Of a DNA stretch of 63,590 nucleotides, positions 1 through 63,590 are shown piece by piece; position 1 is the first letter of the stretch; each line of letters begins with the position of its first letter. Made by a program: the position numbers and the translations under genes. The DNA is from Escherichia phage ECP2304. The stretch lies in the sequence record OR880647.1; one strand, given 5' to 3'. The notes beneath the pieces are model-generated. The model did not search any database, had not been told where the DNA came from, and worked only from the letters and a program-made list of their open reading frames with translations.

Positions 1-441
1 GAATAATTTATTCCTACTTGATAGAATAATGGAATCGGTACTCCAGAGCGCAAAAACCTAAAACTTTCAGTCAACAGACTAAAAACGGATAGAAACTAAA
101 AGTTAATAAGTAATAACATAAATATATATAAAATAAGGATTTATTAGTAATGTATATAGTACCTATTGGTATTATTTGAATGTTTTTGGGTCATTGTTAA
201 AAAGTCCCAAAACTCACAAAAAGTGAAAGAATACAATTCGTGACAGGATTGTTAATGGAATAAGGTGTATGGATATACAGTATTATTCCAGATTCCGGAA
301 TAATTGGAATAATGGAATAAATTATTGAACTATTGTGATCGGAAGGTATATCAAGCTATAATGCGCTTAATCGCGGGATATTGGAGGAGGACTTTATTGC
401 GCGGTTAACCGGACCAGTAGGAGGGCTGGCCCGGAAGTAGT

Positions 442-768
442 TTAGAGCTGTACAGGTGTGAAGTGGGCTAGCGTATCGTCGGACATAATACCCGACAGTT
501 TTTCGTTTACCCAGTCGGACCAAATGCTATCCGGTTCCTGGCGGTGCACAAACCAGATTTCGGATGTGCCTTCTTTGCGCATCGGTTGCACTTCTGCAAG
601 GAACTTGTCCTGCATAAGGCGCGTGAAGCAGACGCTGGTCATTGGAACCGGCTTTTCGTCTTTATTGTAATAAGGGACCAATATTTTATTTCCGAAGTCT
701 GCAACTTCATAAACTGTTCCTTTGCGAAGGCCTCTGATGTCAGTGTAAGAGCGGATGAACTTTTTCAT
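442..768 (-). CDS. hypothetical protein (108 aa)
   Basis: ATG start, clean ORF in minus-strand gene string inside repeat. Confidence 0.5.
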   Translation of the reverse strand: MKKFIRSYTDIRGLRKGTVYEVADFGNKILVPYYNKDEKPVPMTSVCFTRLMQDKFLAEVQPMRKEGTSEIWFVHRQEPDSIWSDWVNEKLSGIMSDDTLAHFTPVQL

Positions 769-770
769 AT

Positions 771-947
771 TTATTTCCTTACGAACACAGAGCCGACGAA
801 TAATGTTGATTGAGTTGCAGCTTGCTCGATTAATTCGCCAACAAGCTGGGACTGCGTCAGAGGTTTAAGGCCTTCTTTGGCGCGAGCTTCATTTACACGA
901 CGTTGAAGGTCTTTTAGGTATTGAGTTGCGAAACTATCTAATTGCAT
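771..947 (-). CDS. small hypothetical protein (58 aa)
   Basis: ATG at 945-947 preceded by AAGGA RBS; stop 771-773; below track size cutoff. Confidence 0.4.
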   Translation of the reverse strand: MQLDSFATQYLKDLQRRVNEARAKEGLKPLTQSQLVGELIEQAATQSTLFVGSVFVRK

Positions 948-996
948 CTTCTTATCCTTAGGGCTCCCGCAGAAGCCCGTTGAATGTGGTTATCGA

Positions 997-1146
997 CTAT
1001 AACGCTGCAAACATAAGCAGACGAATATTAACTGAAGTTTGGCTATTAAAGTCTTGACATTCTTTGATAATCTCTTCTTCACTTTTACCACTAAGTTTAG
1101 AATATTCTGTGATTGCTTGTTTTAATACAGAATCAAAATTGTTCAT
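997..1146 (-). CDS. small hypothetical protein (49 aa)
   Basis: ATG at 1144-1146 preceded by AAGGAGG RBS; translated by hand to TAG at 997-999. Confidence 0.45.
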   Translation of the reverse strand: MNNFDSVLKQAITEYSKLSGKSEEEIIKECQDFNSQTSVNIRLLMFAAL

Positions 1147-1156
1147 TTTATCCTCC

Positions 1157-1771
1157 TTATGCGTCCAGACCGTTGTATTTGCGCCAGGCGTAGAACTGAA
1201 TGGCGACAGTTGTTCCGTTGTAAGAAGGCATTGCAGCTTTCATCTCTTTCAGCGCCGGCGTGCGGCCCAGTTCCTTCAGAAGCTTGTCACCCATTGCCCA
1301 CACTTCGGCAGTTTTTCCTTTAAGGGGCTTGCGAGCGCCATTTTTGAAATCGCAGCGAGCAGCTTTTGCATCCTGTTTTGGAGCGGCAGCTTTTGGCTCT
1401 TCAATTTTGATTTCAGAAACCTGCGTGGCAGCTTTTGCGTGTTTCATATCTTTCTCTTCCTCCTGCTCCAAAGCTTTGAGGCAGCTTTTGACGATTTCCG
1501 GATTTACCATCGGGCGCAGTACCGAGGCGCTAGCAGCTGGAGCGGCGGTCGGTGCTGGGGCTTTCTGCTCCGGCTTTTGAGCTTTTTCGTGATCGCGCAG
1601 CACCTGAAGGACTTCCTTTTCGACGATGTAAAAACCGATATCGTCCTGATGGATAAGCTGTTCGTGTGCGTCGCGTGCAACCTGGCCCCAGCGAGTTTTC
1701 AGAGCGCGGCGTGCATTCGTTTTCATGGTGTAGCGCATTTTGTCCTGTTCGCGGTGAGTTACTTTAGACAT
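1157..1771 (-). CDS. hypothetical protein (204 aa), basic N-terminus and Ala/Pro-rich linker
   Basis: ATG at 1769-1771 preceded by AAAGGAG RBS; in-frame with track ORF 1157..1816. Confidence 0.6.
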   Translation of the reverse strand: MSKVTHREQDKMRYTMKTNARRALKTRWGQVARDAHEQLIHQDDIGFYIVEKEVLQVLRDHEKAQKPEQKAPAPTAAPAASASVLRPMVNPEIVKSCLKALEQEEEKDMKHAKAATQVSEIKIEEPKAAAPKQDAKAARCDFKNGARKPLKGKTAEVWAMGDKLLKELGRTPALKEMKAAMPSYNGTTVAIQFYAWRKYNGLDA

Positions 1772-1844
1772 GGTATAGCTCCTTTCGTTAATGTTAGTTT
1801 GCTTATTACTGCCCACCGTAATGATGAGCAGTGTATAAGAAAAC

Positions 1845-2093
1845 TTACTGCACGATTGCTACGAAATCGGCGGTTGCGATATCCATGCTTGCAAACGCTT
1901 TGACGGTGTAGCTGGTATCTGCCGCGGCGTTGAAGTCGCTCAGGAACTGTTGTACCGCGTGCTCATGGTTGAGCATTACGTCTACATTGCAGTCCCAGCT
2001 ATAAACCTTGCGCTGACCGAAACCTTTAACTGCAATACGCGCGCCTTTGGTGTTGGTTGGTGCCAAAAATTTGGTGACGATAGAAGTAGCCAT
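1845..2093 (-). CDS. hypothetical protein (82 aa)
   Basis: ATG with GAGGA RBS. Confidence 0.55.
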   Translation of the reverse strand: MATSIVTKFLAPTNTKGARIAVKGFGQRKVYSWDCNVDVMLNHEHAVQQFLSDFNAAADTSYTVKAFASMDIATADFVAIVQ

Positions 2094-2166
2094 GATGTAA
2101 TCCTCGTTTTGTTTAAGTTGACTTATTATTGCCCAGTCAGATCAACTAGGCAAGATATAAATCAGC

Positions 2167-2391
2167 TTATTTAACCATCAAGGCCCATCTTTTATAGCCG
2201 TTCAGCTCCATTCTATGACCGTGGTCGTTGCAGTAACGTTGGATATTATTAAAGTCGTTATCGTTCATATCGCTGACGTCAATATTAAAATAGTTGCGCT
2301 TTGCAGGTGTAACGTATTGGGATAACTGCATTGAGTACAGATGTTCAATGTTGTCGATAATAGCTTGCTGAACTTTAGTGATAGTAGCCAT
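2167..2391 (-). CDS. hypothetical protein (74 aa)
   Basis: Internal ATG at 2389-2391 preceded by GGAGGTG RBS; track ORF extends to 2451. Confidence 0.5.
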   Translation of the reverse strand: MATITKVQQAIIDNIEHLYSMQLSQYVTPAKRNYFNIDVSDMNDNDFNNIQRYCNDHGHRMELNGYKRWALMVK

Positions 2392-2781
2392 GATACACCT
2401 CCTAATGTGGTTAAGCAGTATTGCTTTGTTGAAGTAATAATAGCCTTGCATCGTGATATTGAATAGGCCAAACGTGCTATTTTGATATTGTTTTGCATCT
2501 AGTGAAAATCATGCTTGTATCGCATATTTAGCACTAATGGCCTAACTAACATCACACGATCTGGTCTACGCGCGTGCATACATACATATAAGGAGTGCCG
2601 GACAGGATCGGACCGACCAGGGGCGCTCAACCGTCTCTGTCCGTCCTGTAAGCTGGTCCCCGGACTGGTCCAAAATATTTTTATAAAAAGATGCAAAAAG
2701 GTGTAGACATATGATCAATCTAACCCTACTATATACACATACCGCAAGGGTACTACAAATTAACTTAAAGGGGTTTACATC

Positions 2782-2985
2782 ATGTCTATTCGTAGCGTTA
2801 TCTGTGTAATGGTTGCAAACAATAATTTTGGTTTCGTAGAAGGTGCAGAGTATAAAATGGATCTTAAGACTCGTTGCATTATTAAAGGTGAAGAGGAATG
2901 GCGTGCAGTGGTAGAAGATCGCGGCGATATCTACATCTATAGTTCTGATACAATGAAAACTATTGCCGTCTTCGAATTTAACTAA
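2782..2985 (+). CDS. hypothetical protein (67 aa)
   Basis: ATG with AAAGGGG RBS; first plus-strand gene after divergent intergenic region. Confidence 0.55.
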   Translation: MSIRSVICVMVANNNFGFVEGAEYKMDLKTRCIIKGEEEWRAVVEDRGDIYIYSSDTMKTIAVFEFN

Positions 2986-3053
2986 GCTAACTTATACAAT
3001 GGGCATTAGTACAGTGCCCATTAATAAGCTAACTAATTATAACGAGGTGTATT

Positions 3054-3239
3054 ATGTCTACGAACACTGTGAAGTCTGTAAATAATAGCAACAGAACATT
3101 TAAAGTTATCTATTATGGCGAATATATTGGAGACGTTACAGCTCCCAGCCGCATCGCTGCGGAAGACTTCGTCCGTACAGAGATGGAGCTTGGAATCGCC
3201 GATTTTGCAGCCATTATCGAACTGGTAGAGGTATTCTGA
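3054..3239 (+). CDS. hypothetical protein (61 aa)
   Basis: ATG with GAGGTG RBS. Confidence 0.5.
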   Translation: MSTNTVKSVNNSNRTFKVIYYGEYIGDVTAPSRIAAEDFVRTEMELGIADFAAIIELVEVF

Positions 3240-3240
3240 T

Positions 3241-3381
3241 ATGCAACGCAAATACACGCTTACACGCGCACAGCACGCGTTATTGATTGCAGCTATGCGC
3301 GCAGAATATGCAGTACACGGCTGGCATAGCGCCATGATGCGAGGTAAAAGCATATATGCAGACATATGCTCGCAAGAATAA
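3241..3381 (+). CDS. small hypothetical protein (46 aa)
   Basis: TGAtATG coupling to upstream gene; hand-translated to TAA at 3379-3381. Confidence 0.35.
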   Translation: MQRKYTLTRAQHALLIAAMRAEYAVHGWHSAMMRGKSIYADICSQE

Positions 3382-3944
3382 CGCACACAGCAGCACCACA
3401 GCGAGCTAAAGCTCAAAGGTAATGGTAATGCATTACCAACACACAATAAGCACGCTGTACCCAGCAAAGCGGCGCTAATTTCAACACTCACAGGCTGTAC
3501 GTTAACGCGTACGGCCTGCTCTGCTATATGCACGCCATGTATATAGCCAGCTCACAATGCACATCAATATAATTACGAATGAAATGGATTCGTCTGGAAG
3601 AATAACAATTCTTACAGTCACAGACCGGTCCAATGAGCCAACTCATAGACCCCACCTAGGATCATCAGGGTACTAATAATCACCCGAGGGCCCTTATCCA
3701 TCCTGATAGTAAGTGCTTGCCTAAATCTTACCCATCACTTTACTATCCACATACATCCATGACCCCACCTACCTTCTTTTTGAATATATTGCGCTCATCC
3801 TTTCTAAATATATGGATTTTGGTAGTAAATTCTGAGTCGTCAACGTATAATCCGTCTTGTAGCTGCCCCATAGCTACCATCTTTAAGCGGATGCAACCAA
3901 TTTCTATCAATTCTCACCAGTTTTAGAGCATCAAGGAGGTATTT

Positions 3945-4196
3945 ATGTGCGACTCCAGCGCAAGCACCACGACAAACTCCTCCAGCAATGTGGTTACAGA
4001 GGTAAATGCAATGCGATTAGGTCCATATCGCGGCTATTATGGTCGTGCTGCATGGAATGACGCTACTCAACGTTTTGAAGGCTGGATTATCTGCCCGGAA
4101 CGTGTTAAATTTCACTCCGTAAAAGAGAAAAACATCGTTCTTAATTTTCAAAAATGTGTCACTAAATATGTAGAGGAGCAAGAAGAATGCGTGTAG
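3945..4196 (+). CDS. hypothetical protein (83 aa)
   Basis: AAGGAGG RBS, ATG start. Confidence 0.6.
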   Translation: MCDSSASTTTNSSSNVVTEVNAMRLGPYRGYYGRAAWNDATQRFEGWIICPERVKFHSVKEKNIVLNFQKCVTKYVEEQEECV

Positions 4197-4438
4197 GGGA
4201 GGGTGAAAAGGTTGTCAACTATTTCGGGACTCAGGTTATAGTACCTGCCTGGGTTAACTGGCTCGCGGTTGATGAGTGTGAAGAGCTCTATGCTTATGAA
4301 AATGAGCCTTATATAGACGAATGCGACGATTACGACAAATGGTATGAGGATACGGGTAAATCCATCTTTATCGGCAAGTTTCCTTTCGAAGAAGGTTGTT
4401 GGGTAAATTCTTTAGTTAATGTTAGTTCGGAGGCTTAA
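4187..4438 (+). CDS. hypothetical protein, member of 3-copy paralog family
   Basis: Shares VPxWVxWLAxD...YxxExEP motif with 42828..43127(-) and 5013..5309. Confidence 0.6.
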   Translation: MRVGEGEKVVNYFGTQVIVPAWVNWLAVDECEELYAYENEPYIDECDDYDKWYEDTGKSIFIGKFPFEEGCWVNSLVNVSSEA

Positions 4439-4717
4439 ATGCTTGTAGAAGAGATTGTTGAAGGTAAAGAGTATCGTTTACTGACCGATATTGGTGGTGT
4501 TGGGTATGCTCCGGGCGATGGTGTTGAGTTCCGGGAACTGAAAGCTGGTTCTATTGTTACTGTTAATAAGGTGGTGTTTGATCTGCATAGCCTTTTCGGG
4601 CAGTGGAACCATACTGTAATTGTTAGCCAGGGTAGCGATGAATACGATGAAGAAGAGGATGCTTACGAAATCAGTTATACTGGTCTTGTAGGCGCCAATT
4701 TCCTGGAAGAAGTATAA
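4439..4717 (+). CDS. hypothetical protein (92 aa)
   Basis: Start overlaps upstream stop (TAAATG); clean ORF. Confidence 0.55.
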   Translation: MLVEEIVEGKEYRLLTDIGGVGYAPGDGVEFRELKAGSIVTVNKVVFDLHSLFGQWNHTVIVSQGSDEYDEEEDAYEISYTGLVGANFLEEV

Positions 4718-4767
4718 TTATCAATCTATAATGGGCTCTACGGAGCCCTTAATTATCTGGAGGAGAT

Positions 4768-5010
4768 GTGTTTCCGCGGAATGGTTTAAAGTGGACCGCA
4801 AGGGATCTTGCTTTGCTAAAGGTCAACGCTGGCAAGATTTCGGCGGAAGAAATAGCTTACTATCTTAGAAGAGACGTTGAATCTGTACATATCAAAGCAA
4901 GTAGGCTAAAGTTGTCCTTAGTAACAAACAGGTGCAAGCGCGGGCACGAACGGGTATACCGCAAAGGGCGCTGGCGCTGCAATGAATGTCGTAAACTTAA
5001 AGGGTACTGA
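4768..5010 (+). CDS. hypothetical zinc-ribbon protein (CxxGH...CxxC)
   Basis: GTG start after GGAGGAG; C-terminal CKRGH..RCNEC motif resembles N-terminal zinc module of the HNH protein at 38512..39069. Confidence 0.45.
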   Translation: MFPRNGLKWTARDLALLKVNAGKISAEEIAYYLRRDVESVHIKASRLKLSLVTNRCKRGHERVYRKGRWRCNECRKLKGY

Positions 5011-5012
5011 CT

Positions 5013-5309
5013 ATGTTGTATTTAGGAATGGATGAAACTGGACACGAAATTCCTTCTGTTAGCAAAGAGACGCAAGTATTTACCGACCATTATGGGTCTA
5101 CTATCCCTGTTGAGCCTTGGGCTAAATTTGTGGCTGTAGACGCAGATGGTAAAGTTCATTGCTATGACGGAAAACCTTATTCCTATAAAGCTGGTAGGCA
5201 ATGGATGATTGGTTGTGATGGTACAAAAGTTCGTTACTGCGGTGAAGTTGACCTTGAAGGTATGGACTGGCGTGATACTCTAATGGAGATTAAACATGTC
5301 CGCGGCTGA
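5013..5309 (+). CDS. hypothetical protein, member of 3-copy paralog family
   Basis: Shares VPxW..AVD and EVDLEGMDW motifs with 42828..43127(-). Confidence 0.6.
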   Translation: MLYLGMDETGHEIPSVSKETQVFTDHYGSTIPVEPWAKFVAVDADGKVHCYDGKPYSYKAGRQWMIGCDGTKVRYCGEVDLEGMDWRDTLMEIKHVRG

Positions 5310-5385
5310 AGTTACGACATTTATAATAGCTTTTGCGGTTGCTTTATTTCTTCTAGCTAAGTTAGATTTATTTATTTGGTGACTT

Positions 5386-5610
5386 ATGCGGTTACTTATG
5401 GTTATTGGCGTTATAATTGCCGCTTTCGTCATATTTGCAATGGTGGACTCTAAAGAAATGGAGCGGCAAAATTGTCAACGTACTGGTAACAGCCGGGATG
5501 ATATCATTTGGCAATATATTTACGATGCAAAAGGTAATGTTATGTCAATGTATCCTCAGGTTATTACTGAGTATGAATATAAATGCAATGACCGTAACAG
5601 GTGGAGATAA
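5386..5610 (+). CDS. hypothetical membrane protein (74 aa)
   Basis: N-terminal hydrophobic helix. Confidence 0.5.
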   Translation: MRLLMVIGVIIAAFVIFAMVDSKEMERQNCQRTGNSRDDIIWQYIYDAKGNVMSMYPQVITEYEYKCNDRNRWR

Positions 5611-5612
5611 TA

Positions 5613-5885
5613 ATGGAAGTTACTGAAGCTGCTAAACGCATGGTGAAATTCTATGTTGGTTCTGATTCACCTTTAATCCGCGCTTTTGGGCAAGAGCTTT
5701 ATATATTTCAAGGAGAAAGAGAAGAAGCTGAAGATGTTGCTCAGAAGATTCTTGATTTACAAGAAAAAGCTAAACGGGCGGATGCCCTGGAATCTGTAGC
5801 AAAGGACTTCCTGCGTCGTAATAAATATGGTCCTTTGTTCTACCGTGATTTGTATAATCGTTTTAAGGAGATTTTAGGTGATTGA
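5613..5885 (+). CDS. hypothetical protein (90 aa)
   Basis: ATG at 5613 after GGAG; overlaps upstream stop (TAATGG). Confidence 0.55.
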   Translation: MEVTEAAKRMVKFYVGSDSPLIRAFGQELYIFQGEREEAEDVAQKILDLQEKAKRADALESVAKDFLRRNKYGPLFYRDLYNRFKEILGD

Positions 5886-5939
5886 ACAAGAGCTCTTACA
5901 CTGGAAAGATTTCATTAAAGAAATGCTAGGAGACAAATA

Positions 5940-6410
5940 ATGGCTGACGTTAAAACTATTGTTGATGCAATGGACGAATCCAAAGACTGCCAACTGAAGA
6001 AGTCGTTTGAGGTAAAACAGGTTACAGAAACGCAGTTGATAGCCAACTTTGCGCGTTATTGCGGATTGGGTCGCGGGAAGGACTGGAATGGGCTTATTGT
6101 TATGCCCACATCACAGATCCTTGTCTATGTCCGTAATGTTGTAGAAGATCTTTTACGTCTTCAAATAGATATTGGTGACGTAGAAATTAACATGACCGCG
6201 AGCTCCACCATTGTGGTTAAATGGCAGTCGGGCGAGACCCTTCGTTTGGAAGCGTGTCATTGTGCTAAGAGCTTGCACCACCTGCGCGGTTGTCACTACC
6301 AGTTTGTTGGGTTTGTGCATCTACAAGGGTTAAGCGGGCGTACGGCGATGGTAGCGCGTTTGCTGCTGCGTCCTTATAATAACGAGCCGGAAGTCATATA
6401 CGAGGCATAA
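5940..6410 (+). CDS. hypothetical protein (156 aa)
   Basis: Clean ORF with RBS. Confidence 0.6.
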   Translation: MADVKTIVDAMDESKDCQLKKSFEVKQVTETQLIANFARYCGLGRGKDWNGLIVMPTSQILVYVRNVVEDLLRLQIDIGDVEINMTASSTIVVKWQSGETLRLEACHCAKSLHHLRGCHYQFVGFVHLQGLSGRTAMVARLLLRPYNNEPEVIYEA

Positions 6411-6411
6411 G

Positions 6412-6834
6412 ATGATTAAACACGTCAAGCAACCAACATTGAATACATGCGTTTCTGCGTGTCTAGCAATGATTCTTAATAGACCTGTAGAAGAAGTAAT
6501 TGCGGAATTTCATGATCGATATTACAACAATTGGGAAATAACAATTTCCGAATATCTAGTACAAAACAACGTTGACCACATCTGTTCTGTAGGCGGTGGG
6601 CGTGAAACTATATACATGGGTGGTTTGTTTTTGTGCACTGTCCCAAGTCTCAATGTTCCTGGAGCACTGCATCAGGTTGTGATCGATACAACTAATCACA
6701 AGTTTATTGTACATGACCCGATTAAAGGTTGGGAAGGTAAAAAGTTCTACGTTGGCCCGGATCAAGATCCTGAACAGCCAGGAGCATTTATCATTCATAC
6801 TTGGGTTAAAGACGTTGAGATTGTGCTTAATTAA
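6412..6834 (+). CDS. putative papain-like cysteine peptidase (C39-like)
   Basis: N-terminal QPTLNTCVSACLAMIL resembles the Q...C(G)xACLAMI catalytic-Cys motif of peptidase C39; downstream His residues present. Confidence 0.45.
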   Translation: MIKHVKQPTLNTCVSACLAMILNRPVEEVIAEFHDRYYNNWEITISEYLVQNNVDHICSVGGGRETIYMGGLFLCTVPSLNVPGALHQVVIDTTNHKFIVHDPIKGWEGKKFYVGPDQDPEQPGAFIIHTWVKDVEIVLN

Positions 6835-6896
6835 AAACCTTGCTATCAGATAACCCTTCATTGTATTGTGTACCCATCGAATAAGAGGGGTACACA

Positions 6897-7082
6897 ATGA
6901 CCAAACTATACGCCGGATTGTTTTTATTTGCGACGTTAATGTTCGCTGGACTTTATACCTATACAGTAGTCGAACAACCTTCCACGGTTATCCGAATCTT
7001 TGCAAGTACAGGACTGTGCATCTGTCTTATTCTGTTTGTTTTATGTATTGTTATTATCCAAGACCAAAGGAAAATTAAATGA
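6897..7082 (+). CDS. hypothetical membrane protein (61 aa)
   Basis: Two hydrophobic helices; GAGGGG RBS. Confidence 0.5.
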   Translation: MTKLYAGLFLFATLMFAGLYTYTVVEQPSTVIRIFASTGLCICLILFVLCIVIIQDQRKIK

Positions 7083-7543
7083 CAACCATTGCTTACGATG
7101 GAAAAGTATTAGCTGCGGACCGTGGAGTTATGCGCGGGGAAGTTGTGACTGCATATAAGAAAGTTCACAGCGTAAATGGACATCGTGGCCGCTTCTTGCT
7201 GGGCTTGTGCGGTTTGACTGCATTTACTGATCAGGTGTTGCGCTATTTTAATAGTCCTGAGCCTGTTAAGTTCCCAGATATTAAAGTTTACAGCAAAGAT
7301 GACGATTATGGGCAAACTTGCGGTCTTGCTGTTACTCCGGAAGGTACTTGCCATTTTATTTATAATGATGGTACTTTGAGCGAACCCATGCTGGATGGAT
7401 GGGGGTCGGATGGTAGTGGCTGCGTGTTTGCTGCGGGTGCTCTAGCTGCTGGTGCAAGCGCACGCGAAGCTATCGAGCTAGCAATCAAGCATACTACATG
7501 TGCATTTCTTGGCGTTGATACAATATCGTTTGAGGGTTTTTAA
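7079..7543 (+). CDS. putative Ntn-hydrolase, HslV/proteasome-like
   Basis: Starts MTTIAYDG (Thr right after Met as in HslV MTTIV); GSDGSGCVFAAGALAAG resembles HslV GSGGPYAQAAARAL. Confidence 0.45.
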   Translation: MTTIAYDGKVLAADRGVMRGEVVTAYKKVHSVNGHRGRFLLGLCGLTAFTDQVLRYFNSPEPVKFPDIKVYSKDDDYGQTCGLAVTPEGTCHFIYNDGTLSEPMLDGWGSDGSGCVFAAGALAAGASAREAIELAIKHTTCAFLGVDTISFEGF

Positions 7544-7804
7544 ATGACTACATTCAGTCACCTGATCCCACCTGCTTATCACAGCAAGGTAGTTGACCAC
7601 GGGACGCATGTTGTAATTGGTGGCGAAATCTTTATCACAGATAACGAGGAAATCGCCATTGCAATTATTGACAGCACTCAGCATGACTTTATGGTTATCC
7701 TGCAACACGAACCCGATAACTTCACTTTTTACTCCAGCTACGGGGTCGATAAAGGTGGAAAAAGCCTTGTTAGCTGGTACATTAGCGAGTGGTTTGACGG
7801 GTAA
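7544..7804 (+). CDS. hypothetical protein (86 aa)
   Basis: Clean ORF. Confidence 0.5.
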   Translation: MTTFSHLIPPAYHSKVVDHGTHVVIGGEIFITDNEEIAIAIIDSTQHDFMVILQHEPDNFTFYSSYGVDKGGKSLVSWYISEWFDG

Positions 7805-7886
7805 TCTCCTTAGATCAATTCTCCTTGCGCCGTATCAAGTTTCTCTGTTACCCTTCAGTGGTTCATGTCAAGCGGAGGAACTCGAT

Positions 7887-8324
7887 ATGGCGCTTCAACC
7901 TCGTGGTATTCGTAACAACAATCCAGGTAACATTCGCTGGGGTGATAATTGGCAGGGATTGGTCCCTGTTGATAAGCGGACCGACAAATCTTTTGCACAG
8001 TTCACGCAACCGATTTACGGCATCCGTGCTCTAGCTAAAGTCCTGACCAACTACACCAAACGCGAAGGCTTGCCCAATGTGGGTAAGAAAAACATCGACA
8101 CTGTACGTGAAATTATCGCTCGCTGGGCCCCGCCTAATGAAAACGATACGGAAGCGTATATTCGTTCTGTTGCCAAAGCAATTGGTGTTCAACCTAACGA
8201 TCCAATTAATGTCTTCGACAAGACGATAATGTCAGGTTTGGTGAAAGCAATCATTCGTCATGAAAATGGCATGATGCCTTATACTGATGACGTGATCGAC
8301 CGCGCTATTGCAATGGTAATTTAA
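7887..8324 (+). CDS. putative endolysin (soluble 146-aa protein at head of lysis cassette)
   Basis: ATG at 7887 after GGAGGA; lies directly upstream of holin-like and spanin genes; function by context only. Confidence 0.4.
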   Translation: MALQPRGIRNNNPGNIRWGDNWQGLVPVDKRTDKSFAQFTQPIYGIRALAKVLTNYTKREGLPNVGKKNIDTVREIIARWAPPNENDTEAYIRSVAKAIGVQPNDPINVFDKTIMSGLVKAIIRHENGMMPYTDDVIDRAIAMVI

Positions 8325-8360
8325 CTGATGGGGCGTCAGCCCCTTTTTATTGGAGGGAAC

Positions 8361-8705
8361 ATGTTCAACTCATCGAACGAACATTGGGCAGTTCTAGCGG
8401 GGTTTGCTCTGATTTCCCTCATTGGGGGAGCTCTCGGTTACGTCATGCGTACAATTGACGCTGGTAAGAAGGTACGGATAAGCATTGCATGTCTTGAAGG
8501 CTTATCTGCCGCGTTCTTCGGCGTTATAATGTACGCGATCTACAGGGAGTTTAATATCAGCCTTTGGTTCGCTTTTGGCCTTGCTGGCCTATTCGCTTGG
8601 GCGGGTTCACGTGCTACGCTAAAAGCTCTAAAGTCGCTTCTAGCATCGCGGACAGGGATCAAACTCGACTCAGAGGACTGCAAACATGAAAATGATTCTA
8701 AATAA
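8361..8705 (+). CDS. putative holin (multi-TM membrane protein)
   Basis: ATG at 8361 after GGAGGG; about three hydrophobic segments; between endolysin candidate and spanins. Confidence 0.5.
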   Translation: MFNSSNEHWAVLAGFALISLIGGALGYVMRTIDAGKKVRISIACLEGLSAAFFGVIMYAIYREFNISLWFAFGLAGLFAWAGSRATLKALKSLLASRTGIKLDSEDCKHENDSK

Positions 8706-9162
8706 CTTCTTCGGCTTTATAAAAGCTAAACCGCGTCTGTTTATCGAGTATTTGATGATCGGCGCGGTAGTGTTTTTATGCGGGGTAGCTGCCTACCTGT
8801 GGTCACAGAACGAGCTTAACAAATCAAATTTAAGTTTGGCTGAAGAACGTTTAACCGTTGTGGAGAAAGACAATGCAAAGCTGGGCGAGGCTGTTGTATT
8901 TCTTGCTGCACAAAGGGAGAAGGACACGGACTCTTTCAAGAAACTAACTTCTGCAATTCAAGATGAACAACATAACCACAAGTTGCTTCAGGACAAGTTG
9001 CAGACACTGGAGAAAAGCAATGCTGACGTCAAAGCTTATCTTAACGAGCGTATTCCTGATGATTTGCGCAGGTTGCTCGACGCAAACTCAACCTCCTCCA
9101 GCTCCACAGATAGTGAAGGTAAGACTACCCGCACATCTACTGGTGGAATGTCGGGAAGTTGA
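8686..9162 (+). CDS. i-spanin (Rz-like)
   Basis: N-terminal TM helix then coiled-coil; o-spanin embedded in +1 frame. Confidence 0.65.
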   Translation: MKMILNNFFGFIKAKPRLFIEYLMIGAVVFLCGVAAYLWSQNELNKSNLSLAEERLTVVEKDNAKLGEAVVFLAAQREKDTDSFKKLTSAIQDEQHNHKLLQDKLQTLEKSNADVKAYLNERIPDDLRRLLDANSTSSSSTDSEGKTTRTSTGGMSGS

Positions 9163-9325
9163 GAAAATTCCTTTGGTTTACACAAGAGATATTATCCGAC
9201 GTTTACAGGATACAGAAACTGCTCTGACTGAATGTAAGCTAAGGGTTAAGGAAATCATACGCTATGAAGCTGAAAATGTTTCGCTTGATTTTGTAGGATC
9301 AAGCAATTATATTCAGCCTAAATAG
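9020..9325 (+). CDS. o-spanin (Rz1-like outer-membrane lipoprotein)
   Basis: ATG 9020 in alternative frame of i-spanin; signal-like MLTSKLILTSVFLMICAGC with lipobox-like Cys followed by Pro-rich STQTQPPPAPQ. Confidence 0.6.
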   Translation: MLTSKLILTSVFLMICAGCSTQTQPPPAPQIVKVRLPAHLLVECREVEKIPLVYTRDIIRRLQDTETALTECKLRVKEIIRYEAENVSLDFVGSSNYIQPK

Positions 9326-9345
9326 CAATAAGAAGGGGAGCTTCC

Positions 9346-9903
9346 ATGAACGGGGCAAGTCAAGAGCAATATGATCGTGACTGGACGAACTATATCCAGT
9401 ATGCAAATAGCTTGTCCGCTGACGAGATGGCAATACGTGACAAAGTTGTTGCTGAGTATATGTTCGACTACAATTGGACTAACGCTTGCATGAGATGCGG
9501 GTTCAATGCTATGTTTGCACAGGAGCTTGGCCAACGCTTTGCCACGGACTGTTACGTTCGATGGAAGCTCAAGGAGATTGAAAGATCCCGTGTTCAACGT
9601 ACTTCTGAGCAAGCTAACATTGAAGCAGACCTAGAGCGTCAGCATATCATTGAAGCATTAAAACGTGAAGCTCATTATACAGGACCGGGATCTTCTCAAG
9701 CTGCTAGAGTAGCCGCATTGGGCAAGCTTGCACAAATTTATGATTTGGATGCGCCCAAGAAGGCTAAAATTGATGTTACTAACAGAGGCGGCGTAATGAT
9801 AGTCCCTGCTGTAGCAAATATTGACGAATGGGAAAAAAATGCATCCGAGTCTCAACAACGACTAGTTAAAGAGACTGAAGATGGAGCTAAACCGACAACC
9901 TGA
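9346..9903 (+). CDS. putative terminase small subunit
   Basis: 185-aa ORF immediately upstream of and overlapping terminase large subunit. Confidence 0.45.
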   Translation: MNGASQEQYDRDWTNYIQYANSLSADEMAIRDKVVAEYMFDYNWTNACMRCGFNAMFAQELGQRFATDCYVRWKLKEIERSRVQRTSEQANIEADLERQHIIEALKREAHYTGPGSSQAARVAALGKLAQIYDLDAPKKAKIDVTNRGGVMIVPAVANIDEWEKNASESQQRLVKETEDGAKPTT

Positions 9904-11440
9904 TAACATGCCGCGAGTAGTCTGGAAGCCACATCCAGGTTCACAGACGCTCGCTTTATCCTGTCCTGCTGATATCATTTTATACCACGGTACTCGCGGT
10001 CCTGGAAAGACGGACTGCCAGCTTATGCGTTTCCGTAAGAATGTTGGCGTAGGGTACGGTAAATTCTGGAAGGGTATTATATTCGATCGTGAATATAAAA
10101 ACCTTGATGACCTTGTAACCAAATCACAGCGTTGGTTCCCTGAATTTAAAGATGGTGCTAAATTCCTTAGCTCGAAGTCTGATTATAAATGGGTTTGGCC
10201 CACTGGGGAAGAATTGCTGTTCCGTGTTGCTTGCAAAGAAAAGGATTATTGGTCTTATCATGGTCACGAATACCCGTTTATCGGATGGAACGAATTAACA
10301 AAGTATCCGGACGGGCGTTTGTTTGAAGCAATGATGTCCTGTAACCGTTCATCATTCCTACCCGAAGATAATCCAATTATCAATCCGGACGGTACTGTCA
10401 CATATCTACCAGACATTCCTCTGGAAGTATTTGCTACCAGTAACCCGTTTGGTGCGGGGCATAACTGGGTTAAGAAACGCTTCATTGATGCTGCACCGAT
10501 GGGTAAGATACTCAGGAAAACTACGCGAGTGTTTAACCCGCGGACGCAGAAAGAGGAAGATGTGGTTACGACGCAATGTCATATCTTCGGATCTTACCGC
10601 GAGAACAAAAACCTGAGCCCGAAATATATTGCAGAGCTTATGTCCATCACAGACCCGAACAAACGAGCTGCATGGTTAGGCGGTAGCTGGGATATCACCT
10701 CCGGCGGTATGTTCGATGATCTGTGGCGTAGCACTGTTCATAAAATACGCCCATTCCCAATCCCATCAAGCTGGAAGATTACACGCTCTTTCGACTGGGG
10801 TTCTTCAAAACCATTCTCCGTTGGCTGGTGGGCTATTAGTGACGGTTCGGATGTTGTACGTGAGGATGGTACTACATTCTCTACTGTTCGCGGTGACTTA
10901 TTCCGTATTAACGAGTGGTACGGCACTAACGGTAAAACAAACGAAGGCCTACATTTGCTGGACTCAGAGATTGCAAGCGGTATACTGGAGCGGGAATTGG
11001 CCTGGGCTATACACGACCGTGTAGTTCCTGGACCTGCGGATAACTCTATTTGGGATCTGGAGAACAATAACTCTACCGCCGCAACAATGGCGAAGAAAAT
11101 CCGTCTTAACGGCAAGCTGTATAACGGCATCCATTGGAAGAGAAGTGATAAATCCGCTGGGTCGCGTAAACGCGGATGGCAGAAAATGCGTGAGTTTCTT
11201 AAAGCTGCATTGCGGGAAGATGCAAACGGTAAACCTTTGCCGGGGCCACGTGAAAATCCAGCAATGTATGTTTTCGATAACTGCAATTATTTCTTTGAAC
11301 TGGTTCCAAGTCTTCCGCGTGATGAAGTAGATCAGGACGACGTTGATACGGAATGTGAAGACCATATGGGCGATGAAGTACGTTATATGGTTCTGGATCA
11401 AGCTGTTTATACTGGTGTCGGTAGAACTATCGGTATTTAA
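9881..11440 (+). CDS. terminase large subunit
   Basis: Walker A-like GTRGPGKTD; about 519 aa; upstream of portal; alternative ATG at 9908. Confidence 0.8.
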   Translation: MELNRQPDNMPRVVWKPHPGSQTLALSCPADIILYHGTRGPGKTDCQLMRFRKNVGVGYGKFWKGIIFDREYKNLDDLVTKSQRWFPEFKDGAKFLSSKSDYKWVWPTGEELLFRVACKEKDYWSYHGHEYPFIGWNELTKYPDGRLFEAMMSCNRSSFLPEDNPIINPDGTVTYLPDIPLEVFATSNPFGAGHNWVKKRFIDAAPMGKILRKTTRVFNPRTQKEEDVVTTQCHIFGSYRENKNLSPKYIAELMSITDPNKRAAWLGGSWDITSGGMFDDLWRSTVHKIRPFPIPSSWKITRSFDWGSSKPFSVGWWAISDGSDVVREDGTTFSTVRGDLFRINEWYGTNGKTNEGLHLLDSEIASGILERELAWAIHDRVVPGPADNSIWDLENNNSTAATMAKKIRLNGKLYNGIHWKRSDKSAGSRKRGWQKMREFLKAALREDANGKPLPGPRENPAMYVFDNCNYFFELVPSLPRDEVDQDDVDTECEDHMGDEVRYMVLDQAVYTGVGRTIGI

Positions 11441-59787: not shown

Positions 59788-60336
59788 ACCCTAACACCCA
59801 AATCCCGACTGTTAGTAAAAAACGTATATAAATCAATAGCATAGATACTAAATGAATAGTGATTGGAATGGGTAGAAATCCAAATGATGGAAGTGGAATA
59901 ATTTATTCCTACTTGATAGAATAATGGAATCGGTACTCCAGAGCGCAAAAACCTAAAACTTTCAGTCAACAGACTAAAAACGGATAGAAACTAAAAGTTA
60001 ATAAGTAATAACATAAATATATATAAAATAAGGATTTATTAGTAATGTATATAGTACCTATTGGTATTATTTGAATGTTTTTGGGTCATTGTTAAAAAGT
60101 CCCAAAACTCACAAAAAGTGAAAGAATACAATTCGTGACAGGATTGTTAATGGAATAAGGTGTATGGATATACAGTATTATTCCAGATTCCGGAATAATT
60201 GGAATAATGGAATAAATTATTGAACTATTGTGATCGGAAGGTATATCAAGCTATAATGCGCTTAATCGCGGGATATTGGAGGAGGACTTTATTGCGCGGT
60301 TAACCGGACCAGTAGGAGGGCTGGCCCGGAAGTAGT

Positions 60337-60663
60337 TTAGAGCTGTACAGGTGTGAAGTGGGCTAGCGTATCGTCGGACATAATACCCGACAGTTTTTCG
60401 TTTACCCAGTCGGACCAAATGCTATCCGGTTCCTGGCGGTGCACAAACCAGATTTCGGATGTGCCTTCTTTGCGCATCGGTTGCACTTCTGCAAGGAACT
60501 TGTCCTGCATAAGGCGCGTGAAGCAGACGCTGGTCATTGGAACCGGCTTTTCGTCTTTATTGTAATAAGGGACCAATATTTTATTTCCGAAGTCTGCAAC
60601 TTCATAAACTGTTCCTTTGCGAAGGCCTCTGATGTCAGTGTAAGAGCGGATGAACTTTTTCAT
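60337..60663 (-). CDS. hypothetical protein (repeat copy of 442..768)
   Basis: Identical duplicate in right repeat. Confidence 0.5.
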   Translation of the reverse strand: MKKFIRSYTDIRGLRKGTVYEVADFGNKILVPYYNKDEKPVPMTSVCFTRLMQDKFLAEVQPMRKEGTSEIWFVHRQEPDSIWSDWVNEKLSGIMSDDTLAHFTPVQL

Positions 60664-60665
60664 AT

Positions 60666-60842
60666 TTATTTCCTTACGAACACAGAGCCGACGAATAATG
60701 TTGATTGAGTTGCAGCTTGCTCGATTAATTCGCCAACAAGCTGGGACTGCGTCAGAGGTTTAAGGCCTTCTTTGGCGCGAGCTTCATTTACACGACGTTG
60801 AAGGTCTTTTAGGTATTGAGTTGCGAAACTATCTAATTGCAT
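60666..60842 (-). CDS. small hypothetical protein (repeat copy of 771..947)
   Basis: Identical duplicate. Confidence 0.4.
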   Translation of the reverse strand: MQLDSFATQYLKDLQRRVNEARAKEGLKPLTQSQLVGELIEQAATQSTLFVGSVFVRK

Positions 60843-60891
60843 CTTCTTATCCTTAGGGCTCCCGCAGAAGCCCGTTGAATGTGGTTATCGA

Positions 60892-61041
60892 CTATAACGC
60901 TGCAAACATAAGCAGACGAATATTAACTGAAGTTTGGCTATTAAAGTCTTGACATTCTTTGATAATCTCTTCTTCACTTTTACCACTAAGTTTAGAATAT
61001 TCTGTGATTGCTTGTTTTAATACAGAATCAAAATTGTTCAT
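60892..61041 (-). CDS. small hypothetical protein (repeat copy of 997..1146)
   Basis: Identical duplicate. Confidence 0.45.
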   Translation of the reverse strand: MNNFDSVLKQAITEYSKLSGKSEEEIIKECQDFNSQTSVNIRLLMFAAL

Positions 61042-61051
61042 TTTATCCTCC

Positions 61052-61666
61052 TTATGCGTCCAGACCGTTGTATTTGCGCCAGGCGTAGAACTGAATGGCG
61101 ACAGTTGTTCCGTTGTAAGAAGGCATTGCAGCTTTCATCTCTTTCAGCGCCGGCGTGCGGCCCAGTTCCTTCAGAAGCTTGTCACCCATTGCCCACACTT
61201 CGGCAGTTTTTCCTTTAAGGGGCTTGCGAGCGCCATTTTTGAAATCGCAGCGAGCAGCTTTTGCATCCTGTTTTGGAGCGGCAGCTTTTGGCTCTTCAAT
61301 TTTGATTTCAGAAACCTGCGTGGCAGCTTTTGCGTGTTTCATATCTTTCTCTTCCTCCTGCTCCAAAGCTTTGAGGCAGCTTTTGACGATTTCCGGATTT
61401 ACCATCGGGCGCAGTACCGAGGCGCTAGCAGCTGGAGCGGCGGTCGGTGCTGGGGCTTTCTGCTCCGGCTTTTGAGCTTTTTCGTGATCGCGCAGCACCT
61501 GAAGGACTTCCTTTTCGACGATGTAAAAACCGATATCGTCCTGATGGATAAGCTGTTCGTGTGCGTCGCGTGCAACCTGGCCCCAGCGAGTTTTCAGAGC
61601 GCGGCGTGCATTCGTTTTCATGGTGTAGCGCATTTTGTCCTGTTCGCGGTGAGTTACTTTAGACAT
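61052..61666 (-). CDS. hypothetical protein (repeat copy of 1157..1771)
   Basis: Identical duplicate. Confidence 0.6.
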   Translation of the reverse strand: MSKVTHREQDKMRYTMKTNARRALKTRWGQVARDAHEQLIHQDDIGFYIVEKEVLQVLRDHEKAQKPEQKAPAPTAAPAASASVLRPMVNPEIVKSCLKALEQEEEKDMKHAKAATQVSEIKIEEPKAAAPKQDAKAARCDFKNGARKPLKGKTAEVWAMGDKLLKELGRTPALKEMKAAMPSYNGTTVAIQFYAWRKYNGLDA

Positions 61667-61739
61667 GGTATAGCTCCTTTCGTTAATGTTAGTTTGCTTA
61701 TTACTGCCCACCGTAATGATGAGCAGTGTATAAGAAAAC

Positions 61740-61988
61740 TTACTGCACGATTGCTACGAAATCGGCGGTTGCGATATCCATGCTTGCAAACGCTTTGACG
61801 GTGTAGCTGGTATCTGCCGCGGCGTTGAAGTCGCTCAGGAACTGTTGTACCGCGTGCTCATGGTTGAGCATTACGTCTACATTGCAGTCCCAGCTATAAA
61901 CCTTGCGCTGACCGAAACCTTTAACTGCAATACGCGCGCCTTTGGTGTTGGTTGGTGCCAAAAATTTGGTGACGATAGAAGTAGCCAT
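61740..61988 (-). CDS. hypothetical protein (repeat copy of 1845..2093)
   Basis: Identical duplicate. Confidence 0.55.
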   Translation of the reverse strand: MATSIVTKFLAPTNTKGARIAVKGFGQRKVYSWDCNVDVMLNHEHAVQQFLSDFNAAADTSYTVKAFASMDIATADFVAIVQ

Positions 61989-62061
61989 GATGTAATCCTC
62001 GTTTTGTTTAAGTTGACTTATTATTGCCCAGTCAGATCAACTAGGCAAGATATAAATCAGC

Positions 62062-62286
62062 TTATTTAACCATCAAGGCCCATCTTTTATAGCCGTTCAG
62101 CTCCATTCTATGACCGTGGTCGTTGCAGTAACGTTGGATATTATTAAAGTCGTTATCGTTCATATCGCTGACGTCAATATTAAAATAGTTGCGCTTTGCA
62201 GGTGTAACGTATTGGGATAACTGCATTGAGTACAGATGTTCAATGTTGTCGATAATAGCTTGCTGAACTTTAGTGATAGTAGCCAT
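62062..62286 (-). CDS. hypothetical protein (repeat copy of 2167..2391)
   Basis: Identical duplicate. Confidence 0.5.
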   Translation of the reverse strand: MATITKVQQAIIDNIEHLYSMQLSQYVTPAKRNYFNIDVSDMNDNDFNNIQRYCNDHGHRMELNGYKRWALMVK

Positions 62287-62676
62287 GATACACCTCCTAA
62301 TGTGGTTAAGCAGTATTGCTTTGTTGAAGTAATAATAGCCTTGCATCGTGATATTGAATAGGCCAAACGTGCTATTTTGATATTGTTTTGCATCTAGTGA
62401 AAATCATGCTTGTATCGCATATTTAGCACTAATGGCCTAACTAACATCACACGATCTGGTCTACGCGCGTGCATACATACATATAAGGAGTGCCGGACAG
62501 GATCGGACCGACCAGGGGCGCTCAACCGTCTCTGTCCGTCCTGTAAGCTGGTCCCCGGACTGGTCCAAAATATTTTTATAAAAAGATGCAAAAAGGTGTA
62601 GACATATGATCAATCTAACCCTACTATATACACATACCGCAAGGGTACTACAAATTAACTTAAAGGGGTTTACATC

Positions 62677-62880
62677 ATGTCTATTCGTAGCGTTATCTGT
62701 GTAATGGTTGCAAACAATAATTTTGGTTTCGTAGAAGGTGCAGAGTATAAAATGGATCTTAAGACTCGTTGCATTATTAAAGGTGAAGAGGAATGGCGTG
62801 CAGTGGTAGAAGATCGCGGCGATATCTACATCTATAGTTCTGATACAATGAAAACTATTGCCGTCTTCGAATTTAACTAA
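62677..62880 (+). CDS. hypothetical protein (repeat copy of 2782..2985)
   Basis: Identical duplicate. Confidence 0.55.
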   Translation: MSIRSVICVMVANNNFGFVEGAEYKMDLKTRCIIKGEEEWRAVVEDRGDIYIYSSDTMKTIAVFEFN

Positions 62881-62948
62881 GCTAACTTATACAATGGGCA
62901 TTAGTACAGTGCCCATTAATAAGCTAACTAATTATAACGAGGTGTATT

Positions 62949-63134
62949 ATGTCTACGAACACTGTGAAGTCTGTAAATAATAGCAACAGAACATTTAAAG
63001 TTATCTATTATGGCGAATATATTGGAGACGTTACAGCTCCCAGCCGCATCGCTGCGGAAGACTTCGTCCGTACAGAGATGGAGCTTGGAATCGCCGATTT
63101 TGCAGCCATTATCGAACTGGTAGAGGTATTCTGA
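62949..63134 (+). CDS. hypothetical protein (repeat copy of 3054..3239)
   Basis: Identical duplicate. Confidence 0.5.
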   Translation: MSTNTVKSVNNSNRTFKVIYYGEYIGDVTAPSRIAAEDFVRTEMELGIADFAAIIELVEVF

Positions 63135-63135
63135 T

Positions 63136-63276
63136 ATGCAACGCAAATACACGCTTACACGCGCACAGCACGCGTTATTGATTGCAGCTATGCGCGCAGA
63201 ATATGCAGTACACGGCTGGCATAGCGCCATGATGCGAGGTAAAAGCATATATGCAGACATATGCTCGCAAGAATAA
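63136..63276 (+). CDS. small hypothetical protein (repeat copy of 3241..3381)
   Basis: Identical duplicate. Confidence 0.35.
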   Translation: MQRKYTLTRAQHALLIAAMRAEYAVHGWHSAMMRGKSIYADICSQE

Positions 63277-63590
63277 CGCACACAGCAGCACCACAGCGAG
63301 CTAAAGCTCAAAGGTAATGGTAATGCATTACCAACACACAATAAGCACGCTGTACCCAGCAAAGCGGCGCTAATTTCAACACTCACAGGCTGTACGTTAA
63401 CGCGTACGGCCTGCTCTGCTATATGCACGCCATGTATATAGCCAGCTCACAATGCACATCAATATAATTACGAATGAAATGGATTCGTCTGGAAGAATAA
63501 CAATTCTTACAGTCACAGACCGGTCCAATGAGCCAACTCATAGACCCCACCTAGGATCATCAGGGTACTAATAATCACCCGAGGGCCCTT

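Follow-up and report, generated by a model that had tools for sequence, protein, structure and literature searches.

Phage proteasome homologues (PPH) are encoded by tailed phages and prophages of Proteobacteria. In the available passages of the paper that describes them (PMC8665760), they are proteins of ~140 aa, assigned to group I and nearest to HslV and to BPH (the β-proteobacterial proteasome homologue), which lack helix H2 and the C-terminal S12/H5 elements. They retain Thr1, Asp17, Lys33 and the oxyanion Gly47 and have no propeptide; no function is given for them in these passages. C39 cysteine peptidases form the N-terminal domain of PCAT/AMS ABC exporters, which carry out bacteriocin processing. 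The 63,590-nucleotide stretch of Escherichia phage ECP2304 DNA analysed here (OR880647.1; the window) encodes a relative of each, in two open reading frames (ORFs):

6412..6834, plus strand: ORF1, 140 aa, stand-alone C39-like papain-fold cysteine peptidase (homologue of CAjan gp84; phrog_4049, 'unknown function')
7079..7543, plus strand: ORF2, 154 aa, PPH-type proteasome homologue, an N-terminal threonine hydrolase (homologue of CAjan gp86, 'peptidase HslV family')

Both genes are of accessory kinds that are common in phages. ORF2 belongs to a published family and ORF1 to a large one, without a Pfam model of its own, that is closest to C39. Judged from sequences and models, they are likely to be two different, probably active, cytoplasmic peptidases that act independently and are conserved as accessory genes of Queuovirinae-like siphophages (probability about 0.7).

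The relationship of ORF1 to C39 rests on structure comparison and profile-profile comparison, not on sequence searches of the PDB. ORF1 has an ATG start and its protein begins MIKHVKQPTLNTCVSACLAMIL. An AlphaFold2 model built from a 15-sequence alignment (predicted local distance difference test 93.8, predicted template modelling score 0.89) shows a papain-like fold, for which the nearest solved folds are C39 domains. Comparison of the ORF1 family with 31 PF03412 domains by hhalign gave a probability of 87% (E 4.3e-6) over 98 columns and paired Q7, C13, H87 and D102 of ORF1 with Q26, C32, H105 and D121 of CvaB. The CvaB peptidase domain served as the starting sequence for the PF03412 set and was 100% identical to the database entry of that name. 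These four residues and P103 are the sole invariant columns in 121 relatives (27-63% identical to ORF1), and Gln7 and Cys13 are also invariant in the smaller 15-member alignment. As Cys13 is located at the start of a helix and His87 in a strand, the model has the hallmark papain arrangement. The codons concerned are as follows:

6430-6432, plus strand: Gln7, predicted oxyanion-hole residue (conserved; aligned to CvaB Q26)
6448-6450, plus strand: Cys13, predicted nucleophile (conserved; CvaB C32; first residue of helix 13-22 in the model)
6670-6672, plus strand: His87 (conserved; CvaB H105; within strand 86-92 in the model)
6715-6717, plus strand: Asp102, in the motif 'HDP..G' (conserved; CvaB D121; just past strand 99-101 in the model)

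The ORF1 family is large. An exhaustive profile search recovered at least 929 representative clusters (50% identity level) at E ≤ 1e-3, and among the best 150 of these 929 most are stand-alone proteins of 130-170 aa. Only 9 of the 121 relatives had a Pfam C39 match (E ≤ 0.01; best E 2.4e-6) and the other 112 had no relevant Pfam match. By its sequence ORF1 is homologous to C39 peptidases and retains all four residues of the catalytic tetrad, but it is neither a formal member of the Pfam C39 family nor a domain of an ABC transporter. It is presumably cytoplasmic, as the position of Cys13 leaves no room for a signal peptide.

HslV is the nearest solved structure to ORF2 in fold comparisons, together with BPH. 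A profile of 21 ORF2 sequences also retrieved HslV (1.3e-7) and BPH (1.6e-6) from the PDB, as well as proteasome β subunits, and the HslV motifs GDRQ, KLRR, GFAG and GSGG align with this profile. PHROGs places ORF2 in phrog_1040, 'peptidase HslV family' (E 5.9e-33), and the homologue in RefSeq CAjan is already annotated in this way. ORF2 starts with ATG and its protein reads MTTIAYDG at the N-terminus and GSDGSGCVFAAGALAAG further on. M1 and T2 never vary among 21 relatives collected without recourse to a motif pattern; in a larger set of 80 viral sequences their invariance is partly built into the search pattern. The residues predicted to form the active site are encoded as follows:

7082..7084, plus strand: Thr2, predicted nucleophile, Thr1 after loss of Met (M1/T2 invariant; directly before the first strand, residues 3-6, in the model)
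7118-7120, plus strand: Asp14, corresponding to proteasome Asp17 (80/80 unique viral relatives; HslV 'GDRQ')
7160-7162, plus strand: Lys28, corresponding to proteasome Lys33 (79/80 unique viral relatives; HslV 'KLRR')
7211-7213, plus strand: Gly45, corresponding to proteasome Gly47 (78/80 unique viral relatives; HslV 'GFAG')
7412..7420, plus strand: Gly112-Ser113-Gly114, before helix 115-123, corresponding to proteasome Ser129 (G112 and G114 80/80; HslV 'GSGG')

The model of ORF2 has only helices 47-58, 115-123 and 128-137 (H1, H3 and H4). Residues 59-79 form no helix of four or more residues in it, and H2 and the C-terminal S12/H5 elements are missing; the profile alignment with HslV is also ~13 residues short at the site of H2. 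ORF2 fits PPH, as far as the published passages describe that family, better than HslV proper and is already a known kind of protein.

Escherichia coli encodes HslU, the ATPase on which ORF2 could dock as a true substitute for HslV. Alternatively, ORF2 could poison host HslV rings, and either activity would redirect or block ATP-dependent proteolysis. The HslV-like catalytic residues and the identity of the nearest solved relatives, by profile as well as by fold, favour this. However, the helix missing from the model is, according to the available passages of PMC8665760, part of the apical surface for partner-ring contact in HslV and proteasome β subunits. ORF2 is also ~20 residues shorter than HslV, and no AAA+ or HslU-like gene was found among the genes from 4768 to 9903, the stretch scanned with profiles. 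To our knowledge BPH, which scores almost as well as HslV, has no adjacent or known partner ATPase either. A role as an HslV substitute or poison is improbable.

The initial annotation of this locus had proposed, from short motifs, a C39-like cysteine peptidase and an HslV-like N-terminal nucleophile (Ntn) hydrolase. Both ORFs and both motifs are present where it placed them, and its C39-like peptidase is borne out by the profile-profile match and the invariant tetrad, albeit as a stand-alone protein below the Pfam threshold. For ORF2, assignment to the Ntn (Thr1) hydrolases of the proteasome/HslV type stands, whereas assignment to HslV proper gives way to PPH (on the published passages), given the lack of H2 and of an adjacent HslU-like gene. 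It had suggested profile searches and structure prediction as checks. The former recovered HslV in the PDB for ORF2, and C39 for ORF1 by profile-profile comparison, but left both proteins below Pfam thresholds. The predicted structures agreed with it in their placement of Cys13, His87 and Thr2 on secondary-structure elements. With profiles and structures taken into account, both resemblances go well past what chance would give. NCBIfam gave no informative match for either ORF.

What the analysis shows for both proteins is their homology, their fold and the conservation of the catalytic residues. In the proposed mechanism of ORF1, Cys13 would act as the nucleophile and His87 as the general base, oriented by Asp102, while Gln7 would contribute the oxyanion hole. 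If it behaves like C39 enzymes, which cut after motifs of the Gly-Gly or Gly-Ala type, ORF1 most likely cleaves one or a few proteins at specific sites and to a limited extent, rather than degrading proteins in bulk, and cleavage may follow small residues such as Gly-Gly. In ORF2, Met1 would be removed so that Thr becomes the N-terminal nucleophile, with Asp14 and Lys28 completing the triad; Gly45 would form the oxyanion hole and the G-S-G loop would support the site; the protein probably assembles into a ring-shaped homo-oligomer. One or both proteins could instead be non-catalytic descendants of peptidases that only bind, like the C39-like domain of HlyB or the proteasome α subunits. This is extremely unlikely: it is precisely at the catalytic positions that very divergent relatives stay invariant, whereas the known inactive homologues have lost these residues.

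Several observations weigh against two active peptidases acting independently. The Pfam model Peptidase_C39 (PF03412) gives ORF1 13.7 bits (cut-off 22), with a match confined to residues 3-24, and the model Proteasome (PF00227) gives ORF2 16.2 bits (cut-off 22.4). Profiles of the ORF1 family (15 and 121 sequences) found nothing significant among PDB sequences. Deamidases, deubiquitinase-like enzymes, acyltransferases and cell-wall amidases also have a papain fold with the residues of ORF1, for which we infer endopeptidase activity. Proteasome-fold enzymes likewise include ligases (connectase), and Ser113 of the G-S-G motif is kept in only 58 of 80 ORF2 relatives. Literature searches found no functional study of phage HslV-like or PPH proteins, of Seuratvirus proteases or of phage papain-like or C39 peptidases; the sole relevant paper found was the bioinformatic description of PPH in PMC8665760, of which passages were available. 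With regard to independence, ORF1, PPH and the lysis cassette follow one another in this order, with 0-2 genes in the first interval and 1-2 in the second, in four genera whose proteins are 28-37% identical: Seuratvirus, Nonagvirus (JenP1) and those of Pantoea phage Vid5 and Providencia phage PSTCR4. The two peptidase genes of PSTCR4 have a 4-nt overlap.

Conserved order of this kind could mean that ORF1 and ORF2 form one functional module, with a YAcAr/SLOG protein in relatives, which might for example act on a single host or defence target, processing or destroying it shortly before lysis and packaging. A gene for a YAcAr/SLOG protein (PF10686, above threshold) does cluster with both peptidase genes in CAjan (gp82; L001, 2610-3002), Vid5 (gp94; L134, 3536-3904) and PSTCR4 (L132, 4031-4546), and one directly follows PPH in an unrelated contig with a Mu-like head (L005, 4637-5185). 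Four lambdoid viral contigs also hold both peptidase genes, 3-6 kb apart. However, the four genera share an overall syntenic backbone and the adjacency may be inherited. The YAcAr gene is absent from the window, where an unrelated 94-aa ORF (5601-5885) takes its place. In addition, the 79 viral loci collected through PPH outside Seuratvirus contain no relative of ORF1 within 10 kb. Apart from the four lambdoid contigs, most loci derived from ORF1 searches lack PPH (~25 with full flanks), and there is no PPH near the ORF1 relatives of Kuttervirus, Vibrio podophages or lambdoid nin regions. A joint module is rather unlikely.

Obligate pairing of ORF1 and PPH as a general rule was rejected by profile searches of 130 fetched loci. 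A conserved third partner was likewise considered and rejected; the candidate, the YAcAr/SLOG protein, is present in relatives and missing here. ORF1 and PPH are treated as independent because the four genera have a common backbone, the window lacks YAcAr and most loci carry only one of the two genes. On present evidence, their adjacency probably reflects the conserved genome backbone.

The window is the complete genome of a Seuratvirus (a CAjan-like E. coli siphophage of the Queuovirinae) in wrapped form. The genome length is 59,895 bp, since the first 3695 bases of the window equal the last 3695 (1-3695 is identical at 3695/3695 positions to 59896-63590). ORFs are therefore repeated, for example 1064-1903 at 60959-61798. 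The repeat reflects a circularly permuted genome, overlapping ends of the assembly or a terminal repeat. Over 5900-9400 the window shares 90-98% identity with phiG7, CSP1, CAjan, Seurat-like and BASEL phages. The plus strand carries, in this order, small ORFs, a 156-aa ORF, ORF1, a 61-aa ORF, ORF2, an 86-aa ORF, lysis genes, the small and large terminase subunits (TerS and TerL), portal, scaffold and major capsid protein; replication and DNA-modification genes are on the minus strand (~34 to 59 kb). The genes around ORF1 and ORF2 are:

5940..6410, plus strand: 156-aa ORF, function unknown (phrog_25149, E 3.9e-107; no Pfam match; its stop lies 1 nt 5' of the ORF1 start)
6897..7082, plus strand: 61-aa predicted protein with two transmembrane segments, between the peptidase genes (phrog_22841, unknown function; from ORF and sequence)
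7544..7804, plus strand: 86-aa ORF, function unknown (phrog_23528; its first base is the next after the ORF2 stop)
7887-8324, plus strand: endolysin (phrog_873)
8328-8705, plus strand: holin (PF16083)
8686-9162, plus strand: i-spanin (phrog_89)
start 9346, plus strand: TerS (phrog_5334)

ORF1 and ORF2 each have a Shine-Dalgarno sequence and are tightly packed against their neighbours, the start of ORF2 overlapping the stop of the 61-aa ORF in ATGA. The 156-aa, 61-aa and 86-aa ORFs are specific to Seuratvirus among the loci compared. Two hydrophobic segments and a charged tail at the C-terminus (QDQRKIK) give the 61-aa protein a topology resembling that of a holin or antiholin. Its gene is 5' of the annotated LydA-type holin, and the ATGA overlap couples its translation to that of the PPH gene. 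The spanin pair is of the overlapped type: an out-of-frame ORF (8963-9325) with the lipobox-like sequence LMICAGC runs past the i-spanin stop.

The 62-nt spacer 3' of ORF1 contains a stable RNA hairpin (6864..6899, plus strand; minimum free energy -20.1 kcal/mol, z -3.56, with 0 of 200 shuffles equally stable). Within it lie the Shine-Dalgarno sequence and the first two bases (AU) of the start codon of the gene for the 61-aa membrane protein. The hairpin sequence is identical in 5 Seuratviruses although their ORF1 proteins diverge by ~15%, and the spacer is invariant in these phages from 6839 on, varying only in its first four bases and at position 6849. A weak σ70-like sequence, TTGCTA-N18-TATTGT, is found just upstream. 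The conserved hairpin suggests a translational operator or another regulatory element.

Records of related phages show further features of this region. In the record of phage CSP1C (PQ202980.1; 2006-5228 of the fetched stretch) product names seem to be displaced by one gene: the 61-aa gene is labelled 'Cysteine protease', the 86-aa gene 'HslV', the holin 'endolysin' and the spanin 'holin'. When this shift is undone, the annotators' names are cysteine protease for the homologue of ORF1 and HslV for that of ORF2. In phage SA126VB a gene for an HNH endonuclease is inserted directly 3' of the PPH gene (8483-8974 of the fetched stretch), and the annotation of SeppeHuegi has a 'putative homing endonuclease' in the corresponding region, which indicates an insertion site for homing endonucleases between the PPH and endolysin genes.

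PPH genes of other phages are usually found among packaging and head genes. Relatives of ORF2 were detected in 59 phage records and confirmed in 124 viral contigs, 80 of which were fetched. At least 44 of 66 PPH loci outside Seuratvirus have a terminase, portal, Mu-F, scaffold, capsid, Ad1 or Neck1 gene no more than six genes away, a count that includes many related loci and overstates the number of independent events. Placements include PPH-TerS-TerL, TerL-PPH-P22 portal, T7-type portal-x-PPH-scaffold-capsid, portal-PPH-MuF and Ad1-PPH-Neck1. In a PHROG scan of 78 same-strand genes adjoining PPH, large and small terminase subunits, Ad1, Neck1 and portal were the most common annotated neighbours, and a copy in a bacterial chromosome (L008) is also flanked by terminase and capsid genes. 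Other neighbours are NinB or DNA methyltransferases. This bias towards packaging and head modules is not mentioned in the available passages of PMC8665760. In a separate observation, the head module of the 72-kb contig L005, which has a PPH gene, includes directly after a Mu-F-like head protein a gene (10388-10531 onward) for a 444-aa product with a Pfam match to Acb1, an anti-CBASS phosphodiesterase.

Given these placements, ORF2 could be a late protease linked to morphogenesis, a proteasome-fold counterpart of prohead proteases which cleaves capsid, scaffold or packaging proteins or is packaged and delivered with the DNA. Several of the placements are independent, ORF2 itself lies 5 genes 5' of TerS (counting the embedded o-spanin), and Seuratvirus has a scaffold gene with no recognised prohead protease between portal and capsid. 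Against this, the positions taken by PPH are also classic insertion sites of morons, the locus count is inflated, not all neighbours belong to these modules, and heads of the P22, T7 and SPP1 types mature without proteolysis. The reported virion proteome of Vid5 (11 proteins; PMC6266253) includes homologues of neither ORF1 nor PPH (gp95). A morphogenetic protease is distinctly unlikely, and association of PPH with late morphogenesis genes is a lead, not proof. It would be a long shot to see in PPH a late threonine protease of the capsid module, paired with a C39-like peptidase in Queuovirinae-like phages, that represents either a new class of head-maturation or scaffold-removing enzyme or a virion-delivered attacker of host proteins on entry.

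ORF1 has relatives in 196 records of cultured phages, where almost every one is annotated as 'hypothetical'. In lambdoid viral contigs they directly follow replication genes of the O/P or DnaB/DnaC type and come right before NinB and NinG (the nin region). In Salmonella phage allotria (Kuttervirus, myoviruses of 150 kb) a relative with 44% identity (L135, 3980-4429) is located between the genes for the large and medium subunits of DNA topoisomerase II, with a 1-nt gap to the first and a 4-nt overlap with the start of the second. A relative is also located 5' of a helicase in Vibrio phage J2, and another amid a helicase, methylases and a pentapeptide-repeat protein in one viral contig (L003). 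In the contexts inspected outside the four siphophage genera, ORF1 relatives sit in replication or early-middle modules.

These contexts also bear on a possible function of ORF1 in lysis. It is located four genes 5' of the endolysin gene, and 5' of the lysis cassette in three other genera. It could be an auxiliary envelope amidase or endopeptidase released through the holin, comparable with CHAP and NlpC-P60 lysins or phage-derived pseudomurein endoisopeptidases; the endolysin of the window is likewise signal-less. However, ORF1 has neither a signal peptide nor a cell-wall-binding domain, and its relatives in other phages lie in the replication and early-middle modules described above. A lysis enzyme is very unlikely.

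The initial annotation also placed the two genes in the early region and considered a pair of proteases unusual in a lytic phage. The genes are co-directional with, and directly 5' of, the genes for endolysin, holin, spanins, TerS and TerL, and the label 'early genes' is not supported by this arrangement, though early expression is possible. Promoter and terminator scans of 1-10000 gave counts no higher than those in shuffled sequence and are uninformative on timing; in SA126VB the annotated promoters and terminators lie 5' of the peptidase cluster. The label 'unusual' is not supported either, in view of the number of phage records with relatives and the existing annotation of the ORF2 homologue in RefSeq CAjan. 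A role in host takeover or anti-defence had also been raised. PADLOC gave no matches for ORF1 or ORF2, and no literature on such a role was found.

Host takeover and counter-defence are functions for which phage proteases make attractive candidates, and substrates are known for very few of them. With its invariant C39-type tetrad, the almost wholly 'hypothetical' ORF1 family offers a clearly defined object for the search for substrates, in E. coli phages that are easy to work with, such as CAjan and the BASEL Seuratviruses. PPH is the sole primarily viral branch of the proteasome superfamily, and the location of most of its genes within packaging and head modules provides a concrete, testable hypothesis.

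Compared with C39 peptidases, ORF1 shares the Gln-(6 residues)-Cys ... His-(15 residues)-Asp-Pro layout of CvaB, ComA, PCAT1 and LahT, and the local motifs CxxACLAMI and HDPxxG are strikingly alike. It differs in being a stand-alone phage protein of 140 aa rather than the N-terminal domain of an exporter. There is no gene for an exporter or a double-glycine peptide near ORF1, the neighbours being small phage ORFs, lysis genes and terminase. In addition, P96, C97 and W101 of CvaB, which are conserved in C39, are neither invariant nor nearly so in the ORF1 family.

HslV (ClpQ; MEROPS T1B), which supplies the peptidase of bacterial HslUV, is the best sequence-profile and fold match to ORF2 among solved structures, and the two share a Met-Thr N-terminus and aligned Asp, Lys and G-S-G motifs. 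However, HslV (~175 aa) has both apical helices, and ORF2 is the shorter by ~20 residues, with H2 missing. BPH is longer still (~185-200 aa) and also has both apical helices; it reportedly forms heptameric double rings (PMC5777263).

PPH is the closest described system to ORF2. ORF2 was set against the description of PPH, as far as its published passages go, rather than against the representative WP_042125023.1 itself, and no defining difference was found. As in PPH so described, ORF2 is small (154 aa versus ~140 aa) and starts with Met-Thr without a propeptide. It also lacks H2 and S12/H5, conserves the catalytic Thr1, Asp and Lys and the oxyanion Gly, and has HslV and BPH as its nearest relatives.

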